Position numbers and translations under genes: made by a program
Virus record (IMG/VR): IMGVR_UViG_3300046559_000446
Span: 1-64,000 of that record
Reading direction: 5' to 3' (one strand)
Source of the DNA: a virus
Length of the DNA: 64,000 nucleotides
Part shown: one piece after another, positions 5,742 through 36,122 of the stretch
How the letters are laid out: every line of letters starts with the position of its first letter
How positions within the stretch are numbered: position 1 is the stretch's first letter
Notes under the pieces: generated by a model
What the model saw: the letters and a program-made list of their open reading frames with translations, nothing else
What the model was told of the DNA's origin: nothing
Databases searched by the model: none

Positions 5742-6347
5742 ATGGAAATCACCAACAAAACGCGCGATGCAGTGCGTGAAAAACTGGAGCGTGGCGAAAA
5801 GATCGATCGTTATGAAATCGCCGCCGACATAGGCGTCAGCCCGCGCAACGTCGACAACGCCATTGCGGTTGAGAAAGCCCGGCGGAAAGGACGAGAGGAG
5901 GTCGAGCAATTGAACGCCAGCATGTTGAGCGCATCGTCGCAAGACAGGCTGGAAATCTTCAAAAAGCAGGAACTGTTCAAACTGCAGCTTTCGTTTGAAG
6001 AGGCCGTCAGTGCTAAAGTCAAGCTTAAGGTTGCGGAAGTGCTGGCGAAGCGCGATGCGGAAACGCTGGAGGCGATCGAGCAAGCAAACCAGGTGATCAG
6101 CCATTCGCAGGGCCGCCTGCGGCCTCCCTTTTCCGCGCCTGAATACATGGTCGTGATGCGGGCGCTTCACCCCGACAGCACGACGCATGAAAACAGGATG
6201 GACGCTTTCAAACTGTGCAACAGCAAAAAGTTTTTGCTGCGTGATGAAGGCAAAATCGCCAAGACAATCAACACCCTGCCCAATACGCTGGAAGAACTGG
6301 ACGCCCGCCGCGCCAGCGCGCAGGAAAAACGTCGCAACAGGCGTTGA
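5742..6347 (+). CDS. Hypothetical protein with N-terminal HTH-like segment and coiled coil
   Basis: RYEIAADIGVSPRNVDNAI resembles a helix-turn-helix; GAAGGAAAG RBS. Confidence 0.7.
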   Translation: MEITNKTRDAVREKLERGEKIDRYEIAADIGVSPRNVDNAIAVEKARRKGREEVEQLNASMLSASSQDRLEIFKKQELFKLQLSFEEAVSAKVKLKVAEVLAKRDAETLEAIEQANQVISHSQGRLRPPFSAPEYMVVMRALHPDSTTHENRMDAFKLCNSKKFLLRDEGKIAKTINTLPNTLEELDARRASAQEKRRNRR

Positions 6348-6424
6348 CGACCAAACACGTCCATGCCAATCTGTCTCTGCAATCGCAAAAGTGTTAAACG
6401 TGCAAACTGTGAAAGGGCGCCGAA

Positions 6425-7171
6425 ATGGCCCGTGAACTGCAAAAAATCATCCTCATGAACGCCCAGCTTGTCTACTGCAACCGCCTCTACGAAGCAGAGA
6501 CGGTCGACATGGCCGGCGCCCCCCTCAAAAAGCCGACCTGGTCAACCAGCATGCGGTATCCCAAGACCACCAAGAACTGGTTCGATGAGCCGGCGCTGGT
6601 GAGCCTCCGCAATGCCTGCGGCGTCATCAAGAGCCGCGAAATGGCTCACGTCGGTTTCGAGCGCATCGAGTTCCCCGTCAAAGACGGCGACCTTCCCAAC
6701 AAGAAGAACAAAATTCCGGATTGGGCGAAGGGTCACTGGATCATCCGCGCCAATACGACCATCAAGCGGCCCCTGGTCGAGCAGCGCATCGATGGCGTCG
6801 TCACCACGCTGGAGGCGATCCAGCTTGGCGGGCAGCGCCTCTGGGGCGATGGCGATTACGCCGGCGTGGTGATGTCCGTCGCCAAGCGCCTGACCGACGA
6901 TGTCGGCATCAAGTGCTATCTGAACAGCGTCTGCTTTATGGCGCACGGCGAGCCGCTCGATGTTTCGGGCCAGCCCACCGACTGGAACGTCGCGGAAGCG
7001 CAGGCGGCGGAACAGGGCATCAAGATCAAGACCGACGCCCCCGGCTTCAACGCAGGTGGGTTCCCGCCGGCCAATGGCGCGGCTGGGGGAGCGGCGCCCT
7101 TCGCTCCGTTCAACCCGTCTGGTCCGTCGCCGTTCAGCGGCGCCGGTCCCAAGGCCGCCGATCCCTTCTAA
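6425..7171 (+). CDS. ssb: Single-stranded DNA-binding protein, DUF2815 / T7 gp2.5-like
   Basis: WSTSMRYPK, PVKDGD, GDYAGVV, GIKCYLNSV.F..HGEPL; flexible tail ending DPF. Confidence 0.85.
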   Translation: MARELQKIILMNAQLVYCNRLYEAETVDMAGAPLKKPTWSTSMRYPKTTKNWFDEPALVSLRNACGVIKSREMAHVGFERIEFPVKDGDLPNKKNKIPDWAKGHWIIRANTTIKRPLVEQRIDGVVTTLEAIQLGGQRLWGDGDYAGVVMSVAKRLTDDVGIKCYLNSVCFMAHGEPLDVSGQPTDWNVAEAQAAEQGIKIKTDAPGFNAGGFPPANGAAGGAAPFAPFNPSGPSPFSGAGPKAADPF

Positions 7172-24109: not shown

Positions 24110-24224
24110 CTCCACACTCTCCTCCTCCCAATTTCGTACTCGCTTGTCTAACCCGTTTTCGCTCTTGCCGGCAAGCCCATTTCCCTCATATACTCCCCCG
24201 ACCCCTCTCCCGGAGGCCCACGCC

Positions 24225-24788
24225 ATGCCCACCAAGAAGCAAAACCGGCGCATCGCTCGCTACGAGTTAGCGCAGTCCGTTAAGGCGGCGCCGACGCCCC
24301 CGGAGGTCAAGCCGCCGTGGGCCGCTGTCTACACTCCGGAGATAGCCGAGCGGATTTGCGATATGGTCACCGACGGCAAGACCTTGCGCCAGATCGCGCT
24401 GGAGGCGGTCTGGGCGCCCAACGCCCGGATTATGTATTATTGGCTGGAGGAGCACCCGGAGTTCGCGCGGGCCTTCGCGGCGGCGCGAGAGCTATATGCC
24501 GATGACATCGCCCGCGAGATCGTGACCATTGCCGACGAGGCAATCACTGACCTCGATGTCGCCAAGCTGCCCCACCGCATTCACGCCAGGGAGTGGCTGG
24601 CGGTCAAACGCTCTCCTCGCTTCTACGGCGATCGCCGCCAGGTCGAGACGGTTTCCAACGTCAATATCAACACCTTGACCAAGATCGACATTTCCCGCCT
24701 CACCAACGAGGAGCTTCTCCAGGCCGAAAAGGCGCTGCAGAAAGCGATCGGGCATTCCAGCCATAATCCCGAAGACGATGAGGAGTGA
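24225..24788 (+). CDS. terS: Terminase small subunit (Sf6 gp1-like)
   Basis: YTPEIAERIC.....GKTLRQI, YWLEEHPEF, YADDI..IAD, REWLA.KRSPRFYGDR; GGAGG RBS. Confidence 0.88.
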   Translation: MPTKKQNRRIARYELAQSVKAAPTPPEVKPPWAAVYTPEIAERICDMVTDGKTLRQIALEAVWAPNARIMYYWLEEHPEFARAFAAARELYADDIAREIVTIADEAITDLDVAKLPHRIHAREWLAVKRSPRFYGDRRQVETVSNVNINTLTKIDISRLTNEELLQAEKALQKAIGHSSHNPEDDEE

Positions 24789-25006
24789 CCCTGCCCATGC
24801 CCCCCTTCAAGCCCGCTCCCCGCTCCCTGGTGGATATTACCGTCGAAGGCCCGAAACCCTATGAAGGCCGGATCTTCCCGCTCAACGTCCAGTTTATCGA
24901 CGGCGAGTGGAAGATGCAGGTCATTCCCGCCCACCCCTCGACGGAGCCTGCTTTTTGTTTCGCCATCAAGGATCTCAAGACCTGGGCGCCGGCGGGGCAT
25001 TTATGA
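24785..25006 (+). CDS. Hypothetical protein between terS and terL
   Basis: GTGA overlap. Confidence 0.55.
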   Translation: MTLPMPPFKPAPRSLVDITVEGPKPYEGRIFPLNVQFIDGEWKMQVIPAHPSTEPAFCFAIKDLKTWAPAGHL

Positions 25007-25215
25007 AAATCCCCAACCCGATTTCCCTGCTTCAGGACTGGTGGGCGGCGCAACAGCGGGCCATCGACGTTCAATACCTCTGGCCGATCTGCAAGGAACA
25101 GGCCCGCGACTTTGCTGAGGCCCGCTACGTTTTCGCCATTCACGCCATTTGCGATCCCGCCTGGCTGCGGCTCCCGGTCGAAGAAATCAAGCGCCAGATC
25201 GGGGAGTTGCAGTGA
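25003..25215 (+). CDS. Hypothetical protein between terS and terL
   Basis: ATGA overlap. Confidence 0.6.
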   Translation: MKIPNPISLLQDWWAAQQRAIDVQYLWPICKEQARDFAEARYVFAIHAICDPAWLRLPVEEIKRQIGELQ

Positions 25216-25397
25216 AGAACGACCCTGCTCTTAAGCTGGGAATTTCCCTCTCTTCGTCCTGCGACTGGGCGCCGATGTGGTTCGGATCCTACACTGCCTG
25301 CGTCCACGCCTGGCGCTTTATCAATCCCGACTGGGAGAATCATTTGGCCGCCATTTCTTATATGCTGGCGCTTGATAAAGGCATGGTGTTCGGATGA
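25212..25397 (+). CDS. Hypothetical protein between terS and terL
   Basis: GGAG RBS, GTGA overlap. Confidence 0.5.
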   Translation: MKNDPALKLGISLSSSCDWAPMWFGSYTACVHAWRFINPDWENHLAAISYMLALDKGMVFG

Positions 25398-27022
25398 CCG
25401 CGCTCCAGAAGGTCGACCCCCAGGACGTCCTCGATCGCATCGACAAGGAATTTTGCGAGCGGTCCCTGCACGAGTTCGTCAAGCGGGCCTGGAAGGAGGT
25501 CGAGCCGGGCCAGCCGATGATCGACAACTGGCACCTTCCTTATATCTGCGAGCACCTGGAGGCGATCACCGACGGCGCTTCCGTCGATGGCAAGCCCTAC
25601 AACCGTCTCCTTATTAATATCCCTCCAGGAGGGATGAAATCTCTCCTCCTCAACGTCTTTTGGCCAGCCTGGGAGTGGGGGCCGGCGGCGCTGCCCCATA
25701 TGCGCTATCTCTGCGCGTCCCATAACATCGAATTGGTCGAGCGCGACAGCATTCGCATGCGCCGCCTGGTCACCACCCAATGGTACCAGAAGCACTGGGG
25801 CAGTCTGGTGCAACTGACTGGCGACCAGAACTCCAAGACGGTGTTCGAAAACACCCGCTCCGGATGGCGCAGGGCGGTCGCGGCGGGCGCTGACACCGGC
25901 CACCGCGCCGACCGCGTCCTGATCGACGACGCTCTCAGCGTCAAGAACGCCAACTCCGACAGCACCCGCGAGAGCGTCAACCTGTGGTTCAGGGAGTCTG
26001 TCCCGACCCGCCTCAATTCGCCGCGCAAGTCCGCGATCGTCGTCATCATGCAGCGGCTGCACGAGGCCGATCTGTCCGGGATGATCCTCGACAAGAAGCT
26101 CGGCTACGATCACATCATGATCCCGATGCGCTACGATCCGGATCGCGCCCATCCCACCATGCTCGGCTTCACCGACCCCCGCACCATCCCCGGCCAGCTT
26201 TATTTTCCCGCCCGCTTTCCCCTCGACGTGGTCGAACGCGAAGAGCGGATCATGGGGCCGTTCGCCACCGCCGGCCAGATGCAGCAGGCCCCGGTCCCGC
26301 GAGGAGGCGGCGTCATCAAGGACGCCGACTGGATCTTGTGGGACAAGCCGGAATTTCCCGCGCTCGACTTTATCGTCGCCTCGATCGACACCGCCTACGG
26401 CCTGAAGCAGGAGAACGACCCCAGCGCCATGACGGTGTGGGGGGTGTTTTCAGGCGACACCCGCAACGCCGCCACCCGCCTGGTGGATCGCTACGGCCAT
26501 CCCAAGGAAATGCCGGAAGGAGCGCCCAACTCCAGCCTCAACGCCGCCCCGCGCGTCATTTTGATGTACGCCTGGACCGAGCGCCTGTCCCTTTCCGATC
26601 TGGTGGCTAAAGTCGCCCTCCATTGCAAGAAGCTGAAGGTCGACCGGCTGCTGGTCGAGGCCAAGGCCAGCGGCATCAGCGTCGCTCAGGAAATGCGCCG
26701 GCTCTATGGCCACGAGCCTTGGGCGGTTCATTTGATCAACCCTGGCAACCAGGACAAGCTGGCGCGTCTTTACAGCGTCCAGCCGCTGTTCGCGGAGGGC
26801 ATGATTTACGCGCCAGACAAGGAATGGGCGGAAATGGTGATCAGGCAAGTGGCTTCCTTCCCCAAGGCGCTGCATGACGACCTCACCGACACCACATCCC
26901 AGGCCATCCGGCACCTCCGCGACTGCGGCCTCCTCGTCAGATCCGACGAAAGGCTGGCGGAAATGAACGAAGAGGTGGAATATGGTCGTAATCGGCCCCT
27001 TGAACCGCTCTACCCTGGTTAA
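25394..27022 (+). CDS. terL: Terminase large subunit
   Basis: RLLINIPPGGMKS Walker A, VLIDD Walker B, IMQRLHE.DL coupling motif, nuclease SIDTA...HDDLTD. Confidence 0.93.
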   Translation: MTALQKVDPQDVLDRIDKEFCERSLHEFVKRAWKEVEPGQPMIDNWHLPYICEHLEAITDGASVDGKPYNRLLINIPPGGMKSLLLNVFWPAWEWGPAALPHMRYLCASHNIELVERDSIRMRRLVTTQWYQKHWGSLVQLTGDQNSKTVFENTRSGWRRAVAAGADTGHRADRVLIDDALSVKNANSDSTRESVNLWFRESVPTRLNSPRKSAIVVIMQRLHEADLSGMILDKKLGYDHIMIPMRYDPDRAHPTMLGFTDPRTIPGQLYFPARFPLDVVEREERIMGPFATAGQMQQAPVPRGGGVIKDADWILWDKPEFPALDFIVASIDTAYGLKQENDPSAMTVWGVFSGDTRNAATRLVDRYGHPKEMPEGAPNSSLNAAPRVILMYAWTERLSLSDLVAKVALHCKKLKVDRLLVEAKASGISVAQEMRRLYGHEPWAVHLINPGNQDKLARLYSVQPLFAEGMIYAPDKEWAEMVIRQVASFPKALHDDLTDTTSQAIRHLRDCGLLVRSDERLAEMNEEVEYGRNRPLEPLYPG

Positions 27023-27038
27023 CTATGGAGGAAAAGTC

Positions 27039-27194
27039 ATGTTTTTCCGCAATAACCCCACGTCCGTGACGGAGAAGGCTCCAAAAACAGCCGAAAAACC
27101 CGAAAAAGAGGCTGAAAAGCCCGAAAAACGTCGTGAAACCGTCCACGAAGTCGAAAAACACCCCCACCGCGACATGCATGAGAGCAAAAAATGA
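27039..27194 (+). CDS. Small Lys/Glu-rich protein (51 aa)
   Basis: GGAGG RBS; EKPEK repeats. Confidence 0.5.
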   Translation: MFFRNNPTSVTEKAPKTAEKPEKEAEKPEKRRETVHEVEKHPHRDMHESKK

Positions 27195-27898
27195 CCAACG
27201 GACACATCAAACCGTCAATTCAGGCTGCTTTGGACGAGGCCCACCCCACCGGGCCGGTCCATCACCGCCCCAGCATCGCCGGATCGCATAGAAAGCCCGG
27301 CGACGACAACCTTTTCGACCCTCAAGACCCCGAAATGCAGGGCATTCCGCTGGCCGGCGACTTTGGACACCCCCTCCAGACGCCTGAGCAGCGCCGAAAT
27401 ATGGAGGCGCTGCTGGACGACAACCCCACCGGCCCGCGTGATAACGAAGTCATAAAGGCGGCGAAAGACGCCATGATCTACGGGACAGGCTTCGTTCAGA
27501 TGCAAGGCGAGGACCGCATGCCCGGCGGCGACAAGCCAACGGAAATGGAATTGCTGCGTCGGCCTCCAGTCACCAGCGACCTCAAGCAATTCGAAAATTC
27601 CTACGGCACGGATTTTGGCACGGCCATCCTGCAAATGCGGGCCGGCTGCAAAGTCCAGCGCGAAGGATGGAACGGCAAGGATATGTGGATCGCTCTGTCG
27701 GGCGTGGAAGGCCCGCGCGAAGTCTACAGCGAAAAGCTGTGGTCAAAGCCGGCCCGCGATTACGCTCGCGCGCAGCCCGGCGGGACGGTCAAGGTGCTGC
27801 CTTGCTTCATCATGAAGACGGCGACCGGCGAAATCCTGATGGGCTGGCTGGCGAGCCAATCCGACATGCTGGCCCAGGATTGGAGGGTCGTGCCGTGA
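27191..27898 (+). CDS. DUF2829 (Tad2-like) domain protein with a long N-terminal extension
   Basis: C-terminal DFGTAILQMRAGCKVQREGWNGKDMWI...PCFIMKT.......GWLASQSDMLAQDW. Confidence 0.85.
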   Translation: MTNGHIKPSIQAALDEAHPTGPVHHRPSIAGSHRKPGDDNLFDPQDPEMQGIPLAGDFGHPLQTPEQRRNMEALLDDNPTGPRDNEVIKAAKDAMIYGTGFVQMQGEDRMPGGDKPTEMELLRRPPVTSDLKQFENSYGTDFGTAILQMRAGCKVQREGWNGKDMWIALSGVEGPREVYSEKLWSKPARDYARAQPGGTVKVLPCFIMKTATGEILMGWLASQSDMLAQDWRVVP

Positions 27899-28020
27899 CA
27901 CATTTGCGATTGGTTCGGCAACCATCCTACAAGGATGACAGCAAGAAAGAATTGAAGCGCAAGATCAGGATACTGAAGGCGGCGGCGAAGGTGCTGAAGA
28001 AGGAATTGAAGTCGCGATGA
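27895..28020 (+). CDS. Small basic protein (41 aa)
   Basis: GTGA overlap; Lys-rich helix. Confidence 0.5.
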   Translation: MTHLRLVRQPSYKDDSKKELKRKIRILKAAAKVLKKELKSR

Positions 28021-28208
28021 CCCCGTTCAAGCCCGAACCCATCAAAACGACCAAGCTATGGACCGGCGTCTGCCGCGACGGCCCGTGGAAAGGCCTGCCA
28101 TTGACGGCGGGGTCGCGTTTCGTCTGCGCCCCCGACGGCAATGAATACTGCAACGACGGCGTCGGCCACTGGAATTGGGTCGAACTGCACCACGAGGGCA
28201 AGAAATGA
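28017..28208 (+). CDS. Small hypothetical protein (63 aa)
   Basis: G.CRDGP motif; ATGA overlap. Confidence 0.6.
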   Translation: MTPFKPEPIKTTKLWTGVCRDGPWKGLPLTAGSRFVCAPDGNEYCNDGVGHWNWVELHHEGKK

Positions 28209-28483
28209 CCGACATTCCCGATAAAGTCGCCCCCATCACCGGCATGCCGATCACGATGGCGCAGACGTGCTGGTGCCCGTTCGTCAACGTCTCTCCCATA
28301 GCCGGCGCTGATCACATGACGACCAGTCGCGGCGTCAGGCTGCGCTACGGCGACACCGACGCCCAGATCACCCAGGCTTTCAATTGCATCACCACGCGCT
28401 GCATGTCGTGGATTGCCGACAGCGCCGCCCCCACTACCCACGGCACATGCCGATTGATCACCGGAGCAGGACTAAAAGCATGA
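28205..28483 (+). CDS. Cys-containing hypothetical protein (92 aa)
   Basis: WCPF...CITTRCMSW...GTC pattern. Confidence 0.65.
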   Translation: MTDIPDKVAPITGMPITMAQTCWCPFVNVSPIAGADHMTTSRGVRLRYGDTDAQITQAFNCITTRCMSWIADSAAPTTHGTCRLITGAGLKA

Positions 28484-28962
28484 GCGAAGTTTTGAACGGA
28501 ATTTGCAGAGGCGGTCCGCTGAACGACCGGGGCCTGACCCACGACAGGCCTTTCAAGGTTTTGGTGGCCTCGAATAACGATGGCCAGGCCGGCGCCTATC
28601 ACTATGCCGGCAACAACGCCTGGCTTTGGCAGGCCGAAGGAGAAGAAGACCCAATGAGCAGAGCAGCCGAAGAGCAAATTGACATGCAAATCCGTGAAAA
28701 CGGCAAGGTTGCGCCCCGGATTACGCCGGAAATCATCGACCAGCGCATCCGCCAGGTGAAATACTACAATTTTCCCGACACCACCGTCATGATCTGCGCC
28801 ATCGAACTGATGAACGGATATCATGTCGTTGGCGAATCAGCCTGCGCCTCTCCAACCAATTACGACGCCGCCATTGGCCGGCGCATCGCTTATGATGACG
28901 CCCGCCGCAAGATTTGGTCATTGGAGGGCTACGTCCTCCGCAACGTGCTGAAGGGGCTATGA
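28480..28962 (+). CDS. Phage Gp49/Sf6 gp66-family protein; possible second in-frame start at 28654
   Basis: APRITPEII...TVMICAIELMNGYHVVGESACASPTNYDAAIGRRIAYDDARRKIWSLEGY. Confidence 0.85.
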   Translation: MSEVLNGICRGGPLNDRGLTHDRPFKVLVASNNDGQAGAYHYAGNNAWLWQAEGEEDPMSRAAEEQIDMQIRENGKVAPRITPEIIDQRIRQVKYYNFPDTTVMICAIELMNGYHVVGESACASPTNYDAAIGRRIAYDDARRKIWSLEGYVLRNVLKGL

Positions 28963-29102
28963 CTGCGCTCGATATCGCCATTTCGGTCTTCATCCTGCTG
29001 CTCGTCGCCCGCCTCTCCTACAACAAGGGGCGGCGCGACGAGCGCGCCGCTCGACACGGGGATTACGAAGATGAGCTTCATGATGAAATGCACAGTCGAT
29101 AA
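28959..29102 (+). CDS. Small membrane protein (47 aa)
   Basis: N-terminal TM helix IAISVFILLLVA; ATGA overlap. Confidence 0.55.
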   Translation: MTALDIAISVFILLLVARLSYNKGRRDERAARHGDYEDELHDEMHSR

Positions 29103-29286
29103 TCATCTGATGCCCGGCGGGCGACCGTCTCACCTGTTCGACGTCCATGTCGAGGGCGGCGAACCGCTGGTCAAGGCTGAATACACCATCATTGCCGACG
29201 ACGAGGATGAAGCGGCTCGCGAGGGACTAAAGCGGTTCCAGAAGGCCTATGATCTGACGCCGCTGCCATACATTGGCGATATTTGA
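29071..29286 (+). CDS. Hypothetical protein (start uncertain)
   Basis: I.ADDEDEAAREGL..F pattern. Confidence 0.6.
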   Translation: MSFMMKCTVDNHLMPGGRPSHLFDVHVEGGEPLVKAEYTIIADDEDEAAREGLKRFQKAYDLTPLPYIGDI

Positions 29287-29330: not shown

Positions 29331-31865
29331 ATGCCTTTGGTGCCGGGCTTGCCCCTGAACATCCGCCAGACCAACGGCGGCGCGCCGCCGGCTATCTCGC
29401 CGGGCCTTTCCATCAAGCATGATGTGCATAATCCGCCCGGCGTTCCCGAAATGGACGACGCCGGCGCCGTCATCAAGATCGAGCATCCCGACGGCAGCGT
29501 CACTGTCTCCCTCGATGGCCGGTCGCTGGTCGACAAACCGGAACAAAACGTCGGCTGGTTCGCCAATTTGGCCGAGAAGATCAAGGAAGACGATCTCAGC
29601 GCGATCGCTGACGACCTGCTGCGCGGCATTGATGAGGATCTGTCGAGCCGCAACGACTGGATCGAGGAGCGCGCCCAGGGCATCAAGCTGCTGGGCTTCA
29701 AGATCGAAATTCCCAATCTTCAAAGCGCCGCCGATGGCGCTCCGGTCGACGGCATGTCAAAAGTGCGGCATCCGCTGCTGCAGGAGGCCGTGCTCCGCTT
29801 CCAGGCCAACGCCCGCTCCGAAATGCTGCCGACCGACGGGCCGATCAAGATCCGCGACGACGGCAGCAACTCCAACCTTCCTCGTGACGCACTGGCGACC
29901 GCCCTTGAAAAAGACCTCAATCACTACCTCACAGTCACCGCGACCGAATACTATCCCGACACCGACAAGATGTTCCTGCTGCTCGGATTTGGCGGGACAG
30001 CCTTCAAAAAGGTCTACAATTGTCCCTTACGGAACCGACCGGTCAGCGAATCCGTCGATGCTAATGACCTCATCGTCAACGACGCTGCGACTGATCTTGC
30101 GAACGCCAAGCGTGTTACCCATCGTTCCATGATGCGGCCTTCGACGGTCAAGCGCATGCAGATTATTGGCGCTTACCGCGACGTCGATCTCGACACGCCC
30201 AAGCCGCAGAGCCTCGACGCGGCCCAGGAAGCAGCCAAAAACCAGCAAGGGATCCAGGCCACCACCACGAGGCCCGACGACCGTGACCGCGAGATCTACG
30301 AGTGCTATTGCGAACTCGACCTCAAAGGCTATGAGCACAAATACAAGGGCAAGATCACCGGCCTCGAAATCCCCTACCGGGTCACCATCGATCTCTCCAG
30401 CCGCAAAATCCTTTCAATCGTCCGCAACTACGATGAAGACACGAAGGAGCTTCCTGAAGCTCGCGAAACCTTCGTCAAATATATTTTCGTGCCAGGATTG
30501 GGATTCTACGACATTGGCCTGCTCCATATATTGGGGAACACTACCAACGCTGTTACTGCTGCTTGGCGTGAGCTTCTGGATGCTGGAATGTTTAATAACT
30601 TTCCCGGCTTTCTCATGGCTGACACGGGCGCGCGTCAGAACACCAACATCTTCCGCGTCCCGCCGGGCGGCGGCGTTCTCGTCAAGACGGGCGGTCTTCC
30701 CATCAGTCAGGCGATTATGCCGCTTCCTTACCAGCCGCCGTCTCAAGCTTTGATGGCGCTGGTGCAAGACATGGCGCAGACCGGCCAGCGCAGCGGCGGC
30801 ACCGCCGAACTGCCCACCGGCGAAGGCAAGGCTGACATTCCCGTCGGCACCATCCTGGCGATGATCGAGCAGGCCCAGAAGGTGCTCAACAACGTCCACA
30901 AGCGCATGCACTCGGCTCAGTCGCAAGAATTTCGCCTGCTGATACGCTGCTTCAAGGAAAACCCCAAGGCGTTCTGGCAGCGCAACAAGAAGCCGTCCGC
31001 GCCATGGGACGAGCAGAATTTCCGCGCCGCGCTCGATCTGGCCGATCTGACCCCGCAGGCCGATCCGAACACCGCCAGCCATGGCCAGCGCGTGATGAAG
31101 ATCATGGCGCTCAAGCAGTTGCAGCAGCAGAACCCCACCATGTACGACCCGATCGCGATCGACACGGCGGCGCTGCAGGCGCTGGGCTGGAACAATCCGC
31201 AGCAATTCATGGCGCCGCCGGCGGCCCAGGCTGCGCCTCCTCCGCAAATCGTCCAGCAGCAGGCCGAGACGGCGGCCAAGACCCTCACCGCGCAGGCGGC
31301 GATGGTCACCGCCCAGGCGAAAGCCAAGGAATCTGGCGCGCGCGCCATGAACCTGATGGCGGAAGCCCAGACCATGGGCATGGACGAAACCGGCCAGGTC
31401 CAGCAGGATACGCCGGTCGATCAGCACCGCGCCGAATCGGAGCGCATCAAGGCCAACGCGCATGCGCAGCAGGCCGACACCCACCAGTCCGTCATGGGGG
31501 CCAAGGCCCAGGCTGACCTGCTGAACGCCCAGACCCGCCAGCAGGAAGTTCAGTTGAAACTGGGCGAAATGTCGATGAAGGACGCCCACCACGACGACGA
31601 GCAGCGCCTCAAGACGAGGGCGGAAACGATCGACATGGCCAAGCAGGTCATGGACAGCCACGCCGAGAACGCGCGCACCCAGGAGGAAATGCACCACGAT
31701 CACGCCCTGATGGGCCGCGAGCAGGCGCATGAGCACGAGATTGTCGAAAAGACCCACGCGCACGAGAAGGAACTGGAGGGCGTGAAGAAGACGGCGGCGA
31801 TCGCGGTCGCCAAGGCCAAACCCCGTCCGAAGCCAGCCGCCAAGCCGAAGGGTAAGAGCAAATGA
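29331..31865 (+). CDS. Portal protein (P22-like, long C-terminal coiled-coil barrel)
   Basis: 844 aa after terL; HPLLQEAVLRFQA, GTAFKKVY, RVTH, FVKY.F.PG.GFY..G, LLDAG, KRMH. Confidence 0.85.
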   Translation: MPLVPGLPLNIRQTNGGAPPAISPGLSIKHDVHNPPGVPEMDDAGAVIKIEHPDGSVTVSLDGRSLVDKPEQNVGWFANLAEKIKEDDLSAIADDLLRGIDEDLSSRNDWIEERAQGIKLLGFKIEIPNLQSAADGAPVDGMSKVRHPLLQEAVLRFQANARSEMLPTDGPIKIRDDGSNSNLPRDALATALEKDLNHYLTVTATEYYPDTDKMFLLLGFGGTAFKKVYNCPLRNRPVSESVDANDLIVNDAATDLANAKRVTHRSMMRPSTVKRMQIIGAYRDVDLDTPKPQSLDAAQEAAKNQQGIQATTTRPDDRDREIYECYCELDLKGYEHKYKGKITGLEIPYRVTIDLSSRKILSIVRNYDEDTKELPEARETFVKYIFVPGLGFYDIGLLHILGNTTNAVTAAWRELLDAGMFNNFPGFLMADTGARQNTNIFRVPPGGGVLVKTGGLPISQAIMPLPYQPPSQALMALVQDMAQTGQRSGGTAELPTGEGKADIPVGTILAMIEQAQKVLNNVHKRMHSAQSQEFRLLIRCFKENPKAFWQRNKKPSAPWDEQNFRAALDLADLTPQADPNTASHGQRVMKIMALKQLQQQNPTMYDPIAIDTAALQALGWNNPQQFMAPPAAQAAPPPQIVQQQAETAAKTLTAQAAMVTAQAKAKESGARAMNLMAEAQTMGMDETGQVQQDTPVDQHRAESERIKANAHAQQADTHQSVMGAKAQADLLNAQTRQQEVQLKLGEMSMKDAHHDDEQRLKTRAETIDMAKQVMDSHAENARTQEEMHHDHALMGREQAHEHEIVEKTHAHEKELEGVKKTAAIAVAKAKPRPKPAAKPKGKSK

Positions 31866-33496
31866 ACAAGCCCATCCGCGCTGCGCTCCTGACGGCCAAG
31901 GCTCTTTATGACAAGCTGCCTCATGTCGTCGGCGGCGGCGCGCCGATGGCCAAAGGCGGCGTCGTCAAGGACATTCCCCAGATCATCATGCCTGGCGATC
32001 ACCCGGCCCGCATCGACACCCGGCTGGCGACGGGCGCCAAGCCGCTCGATCTGGGGCCAGGGCCGCGCACCGTCAACATGGCGGCGCTGCGCGCGACGCC
32101 GGCGCTGTTCGACAAGAACGTCGACATCCTGCGGCATTATCCGAATGTTTCGAAAGACGCGAGCAAGCTGTCGAACCAGGATCTGTCCGAGCATTTCATC
32201 AAGCACGTCAAGGACAACCTGCTGTGGCTACACGACCAGGTGCCCGACGAAACTCGCCAGCGATCCAAGCTGTGGTACGACGGCGCCAACAAGCTGGCCA
32301 AGGAGTGGGCCAAGAAATACGGCGTTTCGGAGGCGTCAGCCGCCGGCGCGCTGGCCGCGCTGTCGCCGCAGAAAGACTGGTTTCAGAACGTGTCGCTGGC
32401 CGAGCGCGTGTTGCATGCGATGAAGGGGCGCGGCAATAACGCCTACCACGGCGAAACCTTCTCGCCTGAGATGGAGGGCACTTATCGCGGCCTGGACAAG
32501 CTGGCCACCGAGAAGAACGAGCCAATCTTCCAGGCGATTAGAGGCAAGTCGCTGGGCGAAATTGATCAAATGGGTCACATCCCTCGCGACGAGCGCGCGG
32601 TCATGAAGGCGCTGTGGATCCGGATGCACGATCAGACCCATGGCGATCCCGGCTACAAGATCGCCACGCCTGAAGGCCACTTTGGCGAAATCGCCCGCAA
32701 CGCCGACGGCTCGCCATCGCGGGCGGGCTGGGGTTCGCTGGGCGAGATCGGCAAGGCGGTGCAGGCGATCGAGAGCAACGGCGAGCCGACCTTCATGAAC
32801 CGTCTGATGGGCGAGCGCCACAAGGTCCGCAATTTCTACAACAATATTCTCGACCCCAACTCGCAGCATGGCGACGTCACCATCGACACCCATGCGGTCG
32901 CCGCCGGCCTACTGCGCGCGCTGTCGGGCAATTCGCTTGAGGTGGCGCACAATTTCAGCAACTACGCCGGCAAGGGCGTTCCGGGCGCTGGCGGCTCCAA
33001 CGCCACCGGCGTGAACGGAACCTATCCGCTCTATGCCGACGCCTATCGCCAAGCCGCCAAAGAGCGCGGTATACTGCCTCGCGAAATGCAATCGATTACG
33101 TGGGAGGCGATCAGGGGATTGTTTCCCGACACCTTCAAAACTGATAAAAACAACGCCCATATCGACAGCATCTGGAACGACTACAAGCACGGAAGAAAAG
33201 GAATCGACGATGTCCGCAAAGAAATCCACGACTTCGCAGGGGGGATCCGGCCACCGGAGTGGCACGACACCTCTGGAGCGCCTGATGCACCGGTTCGGGG
33301 TGCCAGTGGACCGGGACTCGTACCTGGCCCTGGATCACGCGGGCCAGCCCCCCAAGGAATTATCGGCGGAACAGGAAATGGACCTCCCGGAGCACTTGCG
33401 CCGCAAGCACCCCGGCAGTCGGGGCTGATCTTGCCGCCCGGATACGCCTGTGGCGGCGCAGTCGCCAAAGCATTGGCCGCGACACGGTCGAATTAA
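31862..33496 (+). CDS. DUF7178-type protein with HhH-GPD/DNA-glycosylase-like motifs
   Basis: WYDGA...AAGALAALSPQKDW..N, HKVRNFYNNI, VTIDTHA, YA.AY..AA...G..PREMQSITW. Confidence 0.65.
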   Translation: MNKPIRAALLTAKALYDKLPHVVGGGAPMAKGGVVKDIPQIIMPGDHPARIDTRLATGAKPLDLGPGPRTVNMAALRATPALFDKNVDILRHYPNVSKDASKLSNQDLSEHFIKHVKDNLLWLHDQVPDETRQRSKLWYDGANKLAKEWAKKYGVSEASAAGALAALSPQKDWFQNVSLAERVLHAMKGRGNNAYHGETFSPEMEGTYRGLDKLATEKNEPIFQAIRGKSLGEIDQMGHIPRDERAVMKALWIRMHDQTHGDPGYKIATPEGHFGEIARNADGSPSRAGWGSLGEIGKAVQAIESNGEPTFMNRLMGERHKVRNFYNNILDPNSQHGDVTIDTHAVAAGLLRALSGNSLEVAHNFSNYAGKGVPGAGGSNATGVNGTYPLYADAYRQAAKERGILPREMQSITWEAIRGLFPDTFKTDKNNAHIDSIWNDYKHGRKGIDDVRKEIHDFAGGIRPPEWHDTSGAPDAPVRGASGPGLVPGPGSRGPAPQGIIGGTGNGPPGALAPQAPRQSGLILPPGYACGGAVAKALAATRSN

Positions 33497-33830: not shown

Positions 33831-35111
33831 ATGTCTGAGGACAGCAAAAAGTTTCGCGCCGCGATGCGCGCCAAGGCCGAGCGTTTGGGGACGGCCTCGT
33901 CCGCAGGCAAGGTCGACTGTTCAAGTTTTGGCGACGTCGAGCAGGATCCGATTCACGCCGATAAGGCTCAAGGCCCGCGCCCGCTATCGAGGCGAGCCTT
34001 CAAAAGCGGCGGCGCCGTCCTCGGCGCTGCGGGCTTCAAGCACGGCGGGCGCGCCGCGCGCAAAAGCGGCGGCATGGCCCAGGCTTTCGGCAACGCCATC
34101 TTCAACAGCAGCATCAAGACAGCCGACAACGATCGCGAAGGTCACGTCGAGCGCAAGGGCGGCATGAAGAGCGGCGGCAGGAGCGGCAAGTTTGGCGGCG
34201 GCGGCGCTGGGCCGATCGGCGGCCAGACTGCAATCACCAATCTGGCGGCGCAGGATGCGCAGAAGCCGATGGCGGCTGCGGCCCAGCAAGCTGGCGTTGG
34301 CGCGGACGGTCCCGTCAAAGCCACCGCCGGCGGCAGCGGCCATATGTTTGGCATGGCGAAGGGCGGTCACCCGCACAAGGCCGAAGACGAGAAGTGCGCC
34401 AAGAAGCTGGTCGCGCATCACAAGGCTGACGGCGGCCCGCTTCCGTCACCTGCCGACGCCGGTCCGCCTCCCGGCCCGCCCGAAGCGACGCCCGCCGGCG
34501 CAGAGCAAGGCCCCGACATCAAGGAGGCGTTGCTTGAGGCTCTGATGCACGAGCACAAAAAGTCGAAGAAGCACAAGAAGGGTCCGCCGATGCCGCCTCC
34601 GGATGACGAGGAAGCGGAAGCGGCCCCGCCTCCCGACGATCAAGCCGGCCCGCCTCCGGGCCTTGGCGCCAAGCGCGGCGGCAAGGCGCGCAAGGATGGC
34701 GGCGGCGTCTACGACCCCAACGTCAAGCTCGGTCCGCGCGATGGCTACGCCAGCGGCGGCAAGACCAAGGGCAAGACCAACATCAATATTATCATTGGCC
34801 AACCTGGTGGCGCCTCTCCTCCCGATGCCGGCGGCGGACCTCCTCCCCCGCTGGCAGGGCCGCCGCCGGGGCCGGGGGCGGTTCCTGTGCCGCCTCCCGC
34901 GCCCCCGCCTGGCTTGCCTCCGGGCGGCGCGATGGGCGGACCGCCTCCGGGCGCGCCGCCGCCAATGCCGATGCCGCCTCCGGGCGGGCCGATGGGCCGC
35001 AAGCACGGCGGTCGAGCGTATCCGATTGAGCATGCTTCTGGCGGCGGCAAGGGCCGTCTGGAGAAAATCAAGGCATATGGGCTGGTTCCGCCCAAGGGGA
35101 GGATGGGGTGA
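33831..35111 (+). CDS. Gly/Pro-rich, probably disordered virion-associated protein
   Basis: About 10 copies of an x-[KAS]-x-GG motif and poly-Pro tracts; GAAGGG RBS. Confidence 0.75.
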   Translation: MSEDSKKFRAAMRAKAERLGTASSAGKVDCSSFGDVEQDPIHADKAQGPRPLSRRAFKSGGAVLGAAGFKHGGRAARKSGGMAQAFGNAIFNSSIKTADNDREGHVERKGGMKSGGRSGKFGGGGAGPIGGQTAITNLAAQDAQKPMAAAAQQAGVGADGPVKATAGGSGHMFGMAKGGHPHKAEDEKCAKKLVAHHKADGGPLPSPADAGPPPGPPEATPAGAEQGPDIKEALLEALMHEHKKSKKHKKGPPMPPPDDEEAEAAPPPDDQAGPPPGLGAKRGGKARKDGGGVYDPNVKLGPRDGYASGGKTKGKTNINIIIGQPGGASPPDAGGGPPPPLAGPPPGPGAVPVPPPAPPPGLPPGGAMGGPPPGAPPPMPMPPPGGPMGRKHGGRAYPIEHASGGGKGRLEKIKAYGLVPPKGRMG

Positions 35112-35393: not shown

Positions 35394-36122
35394 ATGGTCT
35401 TGCGTCATGTTGTAATTCGCGGAGTGGCCGATATCGGTGACGTGGTTCACCCCGCTGATCCCGGTTTTGGGCGTCCTGGCGGCGGCTGGAGTCCCGTTGA
35501 CCCCGGCTATGATCGCCCCAGCGGCGGCCATCCTGATCAAGGCCTCCCCGGCTACGGCCACCCCGATCAAGATCTGCCTGGCAGGCGCCCGCGTCCCGAC
35601 CAGGGTTTGCCTGGATACGGGCACCCGGATCAGGGCCTTCCCGGCTACGGGCATCCTGATCAAGGTCTTCCTGGCTATGGTCATCCGGATCAAGGACTAC
35701 CTGGTTATGGCCACCCCGATCAGGGTCTGCCTGGCTTGCCGGTTTATCCCAGTCAGGGACCGATTCTTCCAGCCGCTCCCGGCCATCCGATCCCCGTGCC
35801 GCGTGTGCCGGTGGTGCAGGTCATCCCGCTGCCCGAAGGCGCGGTGCTTCCGACTGAGCCTCCGCATCGCCCTGGCAGGATCGCCATCGTGGTCGAGGGC
35901 GAAACCAAGGCTGTCGGCTGGCTGCAGGGTTCGGATGACCTTCCGGTCGCCGCGCCCAAGGGCGAAGCGCCTGTCCCCGGCGGTCACTGGGTGGCGGTCG
36001 AAGTCAATCCGCAGGCAAGGCCCAAGAAATGCAGCGACGGCAGCGATGGCGTCGGCAAGACTGGCTTTGCCTGGGTGTTCGAAGTGAAGCCCGACTTTGG
36101 CACGGAGCCGACGTCGGTCTGA
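35394..36122 (+). CDS. Protein with GYGHPDQGLP decapeptide repeats
   Basis: About 7 copies; in-frame 30-bp tandem repeats. Confidence 0.75.
   Translation: MVLRHVVIRGVADIGDVVHPADPGFGRPGGGWSPVDPGYDRPSGGHPDQGLPGYGHPDQDLPGRRPRPDQGLPGYGHPDQGLPGYGHPDQGLPGYGHPDQGLPGYGHPDQGLPGLPVYPSQGPILPAAPGHPIPVPRVPVVQVIPLPEGAVLPTEPPHRPGRIAIVVEGETKAVGWLQGSDDLPVAAPKGEAPVPGGHWVAVEVNPQARPKKCSDGSDGVGKTGFAWVFEVKPDFGTEPTSV
35528..35735 (+). repeat. 30-bp coding tandem repeat
   Basis: GG(C/T)TA(C/T)GG.CA(C/T)CC.GATCA(A/G)GG.CT.CC. units. Confidence 0.8.

Follow-up and report, generated by a model that had tools for sequence, protein, structure and literature searches.

Sponge proteins of the Tad2 family are an established means by which phages silence Thoeris, cyclic-oligonucleotide-based antiphage signaling system (CBASS) and pyrimidine cyclase system for antiphage resistance (Pycsar) signaling, and one more member of the family would be routine. 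The question raised by the IMG/VR virus record IMGVR_UViG_3300046559_000446, of which we analyzed positions 1 to 64,000 (hereafter the window), is a comparative one: what is a Tad2-like protein doing with a long N-terminal extension, here called the arm, in front of its sponge domain? An initial annotation of this DNA had placed at 27191-27898 an open reading frame (ORF) with an N-terminal extension of ~140 residues and had read its product as an immune-signal sponge. The ORF was present exactly as described and encodes 235 residues. We consider it likely that the product forms a Tad2 tetramer that sequesters a Thoeris signal of the glyco-cyclic ADP-ribose (gcADPR) type, and that the arm is a flexible appendage whose function needs its tether to the tetramer. 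The parts of the gene are as follows.

27191..27898, + strand: whole Tad2 gene from the ORF list, 235 residues with an ATG start, comprising the N-terminal extension and the Tad2-like domain
27191..27358, + strand: core of the extension, residues 1-56, IKPSIQAALDEAHPTGP ... DPxDPxxQGxPLAG, aligned in all extension-bearing relatives
27359..27565, + strand: variable middle of the extension, residues 57-125, with a second NPTGP motif, helices at 65-76 and 85-97, and the motifs DAMxYGxGF and GEDRMPGG
27518..27520, + strand: in-frame internal ATG, residue 110, with GAGGA upstream at 4-nt spacing; a weak candidate for the start of a Tad2-only isoform
27566..27610, + strand: linker, residues 126-140, homologous to the N-terminal leader of gene B in a sibling genome described below
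27611..27895, + strand: Tad2-like (PF11195/DUF2829) domain, residues 141-235, with the pocket motifs WNG (160-162) and GWLASQSD (218-225)
27698..27799, + strand: long beta2-beta5 insertion, residues 170-203, placed by alignment; it is where HgmTad2 and SptTad2 form their second (cyclic-dinucleotide) pocket

The Tad2-like domain and its ligand pockets

The C-terminal domain is a genuine member of the Tad2 family. The Pfam profile PF11195 ("Tad2-like", formerly DUF2829) matched residues 141-234 over profile positions 2-73 of 73 with 73.7 bits (E 1.7e-20; gathering score, 25 bits), in agreement with the complete DUF2829 signature that had been noted in the C-terminal ~95 residues. PHROGs 872 and 1048 matched the same part of the protein (E 1e-23 to 1e-24). 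When the whole protein was searched against the Protein Data Bank (PDB) with phmmer, the significant matches were solved Tad2-family structures only, namely SptTad2 (8WJD, E 6.7e-13), HgmTad2/AcrIIA7 (8KBI, 4.8e-11), pdAcrIIA7 (9KZR, 7e-10), ModTad2 (9EIB and 8V3E, 8e-9) and SPO1 Tad2 (8SME, 5e-7), and all alignments began at query residues 139-141. An AlphaFold2 monomer model based on 59 homologues had a predicted local distance difference test score (pLDDT) of 90-98 over residues 141-235. The top 24 Foldseek matches in the PDB (E <= 0.001) were all Tad2/AcrIIA7 chains, each with probability 1.00 and with template modeling (TM) scores of 0.67-0.89 normalized to the target Tad2 chains.

Compared with the founding Thoeris anti-defense 2 sponge, SPO1 Tad2 (Gp34.65; 8SME/8SMF/8SMG), the window protein has the same family and fold (TM score 0.74-0.79, target-normalized) and presumably the same ligand pocket at the tetramer interface. 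SPO1 Tad2, however, is a stand-alone protein of ~90 residues with a short insertion, whereas the window protein has 235 residues and is encoded in a terminase-portal operon. HgmTad2 (the metagenomic AcrIIA7; 8KBI-8KBM) and SptTad2 (8WJD) are alike in Pfam domain, fold and the WNG and GWLASQ(S/T)D motifs. The long beta2-beta5 insertion, defined previously (10.1101/2023.11.15.567273), is also of similar size, with 34 residues in the window protein and 41 in HgmTad2. Both proteins share ~32-35% identity with the window protein in the Foldseek alignment and are without its 125-140 N-terminal residues.

The gcADPR contacts of HgmTad2 and the mutants that abolish binding (10.1101/2023.11.15.567273) served as the basis for mapping the pocket. 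In the sequence alignment, W21/N22/G23 of HgmTad2 corresponded to W160/N161/G162, M76 to M208, W87/L88 to W219/L220, and S90/T92/D93 to S222/S224/D225, in which the change of T92 to serine is conservative. The residues validated by mutation (W21/N22 and S90/T92/D93) are all identical or conservatively replaced in the window protein. The initial annotation had named missing pocket residues, together with a failure of ligand binding or defense rescue, as what would refute a sponge; as far as the alignment goes, the residues are there. The GWLASQ(S/T)D motif is common to the window protein, HgmTad2 and SptTad2 and is absent from ModTad2, a His-ADPR (histidine-ADP-ribose) binder that does not block type I Thoeris.

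The second pocket gave a different picture. The HgmTad2 residues for cyclic di-GMP (cGG), R31, S47, F70 and N85, corresponded to S170, S185, V202 and M217, so that the serine alone was kept. Because three of the four validated residues are replaced, binding of cyclic dinucleotides in the manner of HgmTad2 is unlikely. The earlier sponge reading therefore stands for the canonical pocket for ADP-ribose signals, which is intact by alignment, and does not extend to a cyclic-dinucleotide pocket of the HgmTad2 type. Within the subfamily, the insertion (residues 170-203) is strongly conserved, with S170, W184, S185, A192, G198 and V202-C205 invariant or nearly so, and because of this conservation a different second ligand is possible, as for MoTad2 with cyclic UMP (cUMP). 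In a 97%-identical protein on a 1,024-bp contig (P0001), five residues inside the insertion (LWSKP), including the otherwise invariant W184 and S185, are missing, a difference due either to a deletion that occurs in nature or to faulty assembly.

Taken as a sponge, the protein would work as follows. Like the Tad2 proteins of solved structure, the DUF2829 domain of 95 residues most likely forms a homotetramer. This tetramer would sequester an ADP-ribose-derived alarm molecule made by a domain of the TIR (Toll/interleukin-1 receptor) type, of the gcADPR or 3'cADPR (3' cyclic ADP-ribose) type, in pockets between protomers, and removal of the signal would blunt Thoeris-type immunity of the host.

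Composition, selection and distribution of the N-terminal arm

The N-terminal extension is real coding sequence, because its G+C content by codon position (0.66/0.43/0.74) follows the same pattern as the genes for the large terminase subunit (TerL) and the portal, and because the ratio of nonsynonymous to synonymous substitution rates (dN/dS) of its core is 0.23-0.50. Its description as acidic and proline-rich was borne out in a mild form: the first 135 residues contain 22 D+E against 14 K+R, with 16 P, 13 G and a pI of 5.1. The arm is predicted to be mostly disordered. In the AlphaFold2 model its pLDDT was 40-72, with short helices at 10-17, 65-76 and 85-97 only, and the ESM Atlas model of the whole protein had a mean pLDDT of 0.63.

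Six proteins, P0002-P0007, are homologous to the 235-residue protein over its full length (45-52% identity, 83-100% query coverage). The core of the arm (residues 6-56) is under purifying selection, with a dN/dS of 0.28 against the sibling genome and 0.50 against the related phage L002. For comparison, the Tad2 domain gave 0.20 against gene B of the sibling genome and 0.79 against L002, TerL gave 0.08 and the portal 0.11. Downstream of the core, the alignments showed the short modules NPTGPRD, DAMxYGxGF, SGNEGVxVTN and GEDRMPGG, which are present, absent or duplicated depending on the relative. The variable middle (residues 57-125) is common to P0002 and the related phage L007 (3965-4729) and is without a nucleotide match in the sibling genome.

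We searched for the arm (residues 1-135) with phmmer among 1.84 billion representative sequences. Four real matches were obtained (P0004, P0002, P0005 and P0122), all of them DUF2829 proteins of 182-274 residues with the arm N-terminal to the domain each time, while a fifth, a eukaryotic BED-finger protein (P0123), was spurious. A word-based search added P0003 and P0121, and a scan of IMG/VR added L007. In all nine sequences (the window, gene A of the sibling genome/P0121, P0122, P0002-P0005, P0007 and L007a), the arm is attached to DUF2829, and the phmmer search found it neither alone nor on another domain. It occurs on two types of DUF2829, a long one in the window and P0002-P0007 and a short divergent one in P0121 and P0122. 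No Pfam family matched residues 1-135 at E <= 10, no annotated phage record covered the arm, and no paralogue of residues 1-140 was found below E 0.3 when all six-frame ORFs of the genome were searched with BLASTP. These results indicate that the arm is confined to a tiny phage clade. Because it is under selection and always tethered to DUF2829, it probably matters. The initial annotation had inferred an extra function or a localization signal for it; none of our comparisons pointed to a specific function or to a part in localization.

Several known modules were compared with the arm and rejected. A search of the whole record for Sequestin (PF21825) came back empty at E <= 10. The widespread sponge-associated N-domain of ~75 residues (N4 gp49 type) reached an hhalign probability of 0.2% when a 62-sequence alignment of it was compared with the nine-sequence arm alignment. 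The phmmer alignment to pdAcrIIA7 (9KZR) began at chain residue 48 and query residue 139, leaving residues 1-138 unaligned with its head. Mimicry of the portal N-terminus was likewise not supported (BLASTP E 0.31; hhalign probability 0.1%), and the arm motif DPxDPxxQG(I/L)PLAG matched the GYGHPDQGLP repeats of the ORF at 35394-36122 at E 1.4 without correction and not at all with composition correction. A shared tag KP(x)I(Q/R)AAL, suggested by KPSIQAAL in the arm (27209-27232) and KPIRAAL in the DUF7178-type protein after the portal (31868-31888), was not relied on. The pattern I[QRH][AS]AL had four six-frame matches in 138 kb, which form two homologous pairs; it was chosen post hoc and lies internally in the sibling genome, and the likeness may be due to chance. 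We regard the arm as neither a second known sponge nor a folded known domain, and it probably has no independent activity.

N-terminal additions to DUF2829 are common and not exceptional. In the profiles of PHROGs 872, 1048 and 30130 the domain is the C-terminal portion of a longer protein, extended forms make up most of the 283 homologues (129-412 residues), and the ~75-residue N-domain is present in at least 62 of the 123 proteins fetched. The nearest relatives of the window Tad2 domain (55-70% identity) are mostly of a two-module type of ~170 residues. The initial annotation had remarked that the extension is not found in the small characterized Tad2 proteins. That is correct for SPO1 Tad2, HgmTad2, SptTad2 and ModTad2, to which the PDB alignments start at residues 139-141, but it calls for a qualification, since such additions are common among homologues and the solved pdAcrIIA7 (9KZR) has one. 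What is new here is only an arm of the window type and its fused/split polymorphism.

Among known systems, Tad2 proteins with the ~75-residue N-domain (N4 gp49 type), Acb4-Tad2 and Sequestin-Tad2 (10.1101/2025.07.12.664507) resemble the window protein in having an N-terminal partner and a C-terminal DUF2829, but the window arm is none of those partners. PF13876 corresponds to Acb4, whose fusions with Tad2 are frequent and functional, and it was through the fusion partners of PF11195 or PF13876 that the Sequestin family of sponges was reached, whose members mostly stand alone (10.1101/2025.07.12.664507). No other DUF2829 protein of solved structure has an N-terminal addition, and pdAcrIIA7 provides the best working analogy. 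Its 48-residue head is flexible, is dispensable for the tetramer and blocks the core groove and RNA binding (PMC13133391). That head, however, consists of two long helices abutting the core, whereas the window arm has three times its length, is predicted to be mostly disordered and bears no sequence relation to it. The arm, with its three short helices and several proline-rich short motifs, is a clade-specific and, by prediction, largely disordered element that would act on or through the tetramer. It may be a flexible head that modulates access to the tetramer surface, like the pdAcrIIA7 head, or it may tether the tetramer to a partner.

Fused and split forms and the terminase-portal sponge island

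The record that contains the window, listed as having direct terminal repeats, has 138,254 bp and consists of two ~69-kb units of ~85% identity in head-to-tail order, which meet at a terminal repeat of 99 bp (1-99 = 138156-138254), with the unit junction near 69299. An independent 30,381-bp contig from the Joint Genome Institute (L003) agreed with the second unit to 99.94% across the 9.5 kb that were fetched and, if colinear, would end at the junction. The record is probably a mis-join of two co-occurring sibling phages, and we refer to the second unit (copy 2) as the sibling genome.

In the sibling genome, the Tad2 slot is split into two coupled genes at 96189-96776 and 96773-97111, which overlap by ATGA. 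Gene A (195 residues) encodes the arm with a short divergent DUF2829, where WSG and WTISQAD replace the WNG and WLASQSD motifs. The second gene, gene B (112 residues), encodes a stand-alone long Tad2 that is 90% identical to the window domain. The two Tad2 types may have different ligands. Nucleotide homology between the window and the sibling genome stops at 27357 and resumes at 27596, the pairwise protein alignment with gene B starts at window residue 126, and P0003 retains the VVENDR leader in frame. In a maximum-likelihood tree of the domain, which is unrooted and short, the window protein and gene B were paired with 100/100 support among arm-fused forms, and the arm-bearing forms lay outside a clade of 43 other fetched homologues, mostly of ~170 residues (split support 99/96). 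From the placement of the window protein and gene B, the fused state is probably ancestral in the arm group and the split derived.

The Tad2 gene lies in a continuous + strand block in the order TerS (small terminase subunit), TerL, 51-residue ORF, Tad2, 41-, 63- and 93-residue ORFs, PF13876 gene, small ORFs and portal. The neighbors with coordinates are as follows.

25394-27022, + strand: TerL, in the block after TerS
27039..27194, + strand: upstream Lys/Glu-rich ORF of 51 residues, translationally coupled to the Tad2 gene, with ends conserved in copy 2 and L002
27895-28020, + strand: Lys-rich ORF of 41 residues, probably helical; its GTG overlaps the Tad2 stop (GTGA), and it has an ATGA overlap with the next gene
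28017-28208, + strand: ORF of 63 residues, followed by the 93-residue ORF
28480..28962, + strand: PF13876 (Acb4-type) gene, PF13876 E 3.8e-25, the second sponge of the island
29331-31865, + strand: SU10-type portal, after the small ORFs 3' of the PF13876 gene

The ATG of the Tad2 gene overlaps the stop of the upstream small ORF (27039-27194) in an ATGA junction, and the order TerL, small ORF, Tad2 is kept in L002 and L003. Neither a sigma-70-like promoter nor a terminator was found in a crude consensus scan of the + strand from 24194 to 29273, and the Tad2 gene is apparently co-transcribed with TerL and the portal. In three relatives the two ends of the upstream ORF (MFFRNNPTSVTEKA... / ...HPHRDMHESKK) are conserved while its middle varies, and L007 lacks the ORF. 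The sibling genome has no counterpart of a 118-bp segment with the 41-residue ORF, and gene B there directly adjoins the 63-residue gene.

The Tad2 gene is among the units that make up a small sponge island, which is inserted between the TerL and portal genes. The slot is variable, because the closest annotated phage, MW202675 (portal 67%), carries different cargo there. In L007, the same slot holds the arm-Tad2 gene and two further genes, one for a second DUF2829 protein, whose arm is made of PDQGLP repeats, and one for a protein that has an Acb2/Tad1 hairpin domain at its end. Across the three related phages, the sponge-type genes of the island each have an N-terminal non-sponge module. Fusions of PF11195 with PF13876 also occur among the homologues (P0039, P0097 and P0118).

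Alternative roles for the arm

Several points weigh against a tethered appendage on a gcADPR-type sponge. Two secondary gcADPR contacts are changed (A78 to T210 and T82 to E214). The exact ligand is unreadable from sequence because Tad2 homologues bind varied signals, including 3'cADPR, His-ADPR, N7-cADPR, cyclic dinucleotides, and cUMP or cyclic CMP (cCMP) (10.1101/2025.08.24.671296). The dN/dS of 0.5 against one relative, together with the frequent loss and duplication of modules, amounts to weak constraint on much of the arm. The comparison with the pdAcrIIA7 head, which is a third as long and has no sequence in common with the arm, remains an analogy only. Finally, a position in a late operon is unusual for a counter-defense gene that acts early.

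A bolder reading, which we put forward tentatively and with a clear minority of our confidence, is that the arm represents a new functional class of sponge appendage. It would be a disordered N-terminal module of short motifs that the phages of this clade move between DUF2829 domains. It would deliver or anchor the sponge, for example into the virion for co-injection, or add an anti-defense activity directed at proteins, and the island would reflect a general strategy of tagged sponges.

Among the rival explanations, the one that fares best, though we judge it unlikely, is that the arm is an independent second anti-defense module, a new sponge or protein inhibitor, so that one fused protein would block two immune pathways. 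The precedents of Acb4-Tad2 and Sequestin-Tad2 and the logic of guilt by fusion (10.1101/2025.07.12.664507) favor it, as do the purifying selection on the arm and its combination with two types of DUF2829 domain. However, the arm was never found alone or on another domain among the 1.84 billion representatives, unlike the mostly stand-alone Sequestin. It also has no confidently predicted fold, while known sponges are compact oligomerizing folds. The lack of a match to PF21825 or to any other Pfam family even at E 10, and the gain, loss and duplication of its short modules between close relatives, point in the same direction.

We place somewhat behind this, at a low probability, the explanation that the arm is a targeting signal, bringing the sponge into the capsid or onto the virion or a host structure so that it is in place before immune signaling starts. 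Targeting would account both for the late terminase-portal site, where the gene lies between TerL and the portal with no promoter or terminator of its own detected, and for the N-terminal module on every sponge-type gene of the island. The PDQGLP arm of the second DUF2829 protein in L007 does match the repeat protein encoded at 35394-36122 in the structural module of the window (E 5e-9), and the ESM features of residues 1-135 were nearest to portal N-terminal fragments, with a score of 0.84 that is below the level of evidence. The window arm itself, however, has no significant likeness to other proteins of the genome, to the PDQGLP repeats after correction or to the portal N-terminus, and the KP(x)I(Q/R)AAL motif is a short one that was picked out post hoc and whose position in the sibling genome is not N-terminal. 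Late expression would be explained otherwise if late proteins trigger the signaling, and in the sibling genome the stand-alone gene B, which has no arm, works from that slot too.

It is improbable that the arm is a tolerated leftover of rearrangement and that the working product is a short Tad2 started internally at residue 110. The GAGGA-N4-ATG at 27518 has an identical context in L007a, and the same domain is made as a separate 112-residue protein in the sibling genome. This internal-start context, however, is absent from L002 and from gene A, and a ribosome-binding site is not needed to explain why these nucleotides are conserved, since they also code for GEDRMPGG, a conserved peptide. The arm core, moreover, is under purifying selection and has been retained in nine sequences from several samples.

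Very improbable is a DUF2829 domain acting as an RNA binder of the AcrIIA7 type, an anti-CRISPR that sequesters trans-activating CRISPR RNA (tracrRNA), with the arm as its auto-inhibitory head: although pdAcrIIA7 matches the domain significantly (9KZR, E 7e-10) and its head blocks RNA binding (PMC13133391), its proposed tracrRNA residues K58, K66, K71, K93 and R101 correspond to R150, E158, K163, W184 and a gap, with positive charge kept at two of five positions, so that by residue comparison the RNA groove is not conserved; the arm is not homologous to the pdAcrIIA7 head, a different laboratory failed to reproduce the activity of HgmTad2 against Cas9 (10.1101/2023.11.15.567273), and type II-A CRISPR has no known link to the host of this phage.

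The value of the locus is comparative. A rare disordered arm, always tethered to DUF2829 and present on two of its types, is found fused and split in sibling phages of ~85% identity. Full-length, arm-less and split forms together provide a natural experiment on how N-terminal additions affect sponge tetramers, a question that the pdAcrIIA7 head poses as well, as do the many sponges of two modules with unexplained front halves. If the arm targets or regulates the sponge, counter-defense would gain a further level of control; if it is inert, the protein is simply another Tad2.

Some further ORFs of the island and of the structural module were also recorded. In L007, the third protein of the slot (6100-6663, 187 residues) carries the Acb2/Tad1 hairpin domain PF24729 at its C-terminus (E 7.6e-14), and the Cys/Gly-rich segments before this domain resemble, by eye only, the 63-residue ORF of the window (28017-28208). 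Within the structural module, the product of the ORF at 35394-36122 (+ strand, 242 residues) contains some seven GYGHPDQGLP repeats in tandem and, after them, a C-terminal part rich in beta structure; it had no match in Pfam or PHROG. Its repeat is the N-terminal arm of the second DUF2829 protein of L007 (5223-5954; BLASTP with composition correction). After the portal-proximal genes, 33831-35111 (+ strand) encodes a Gly/Pro/Ala-rich low-complexity protein of 426 residues that matched no family and that, judged by where it lies, may be an internal or ejection-type protein.

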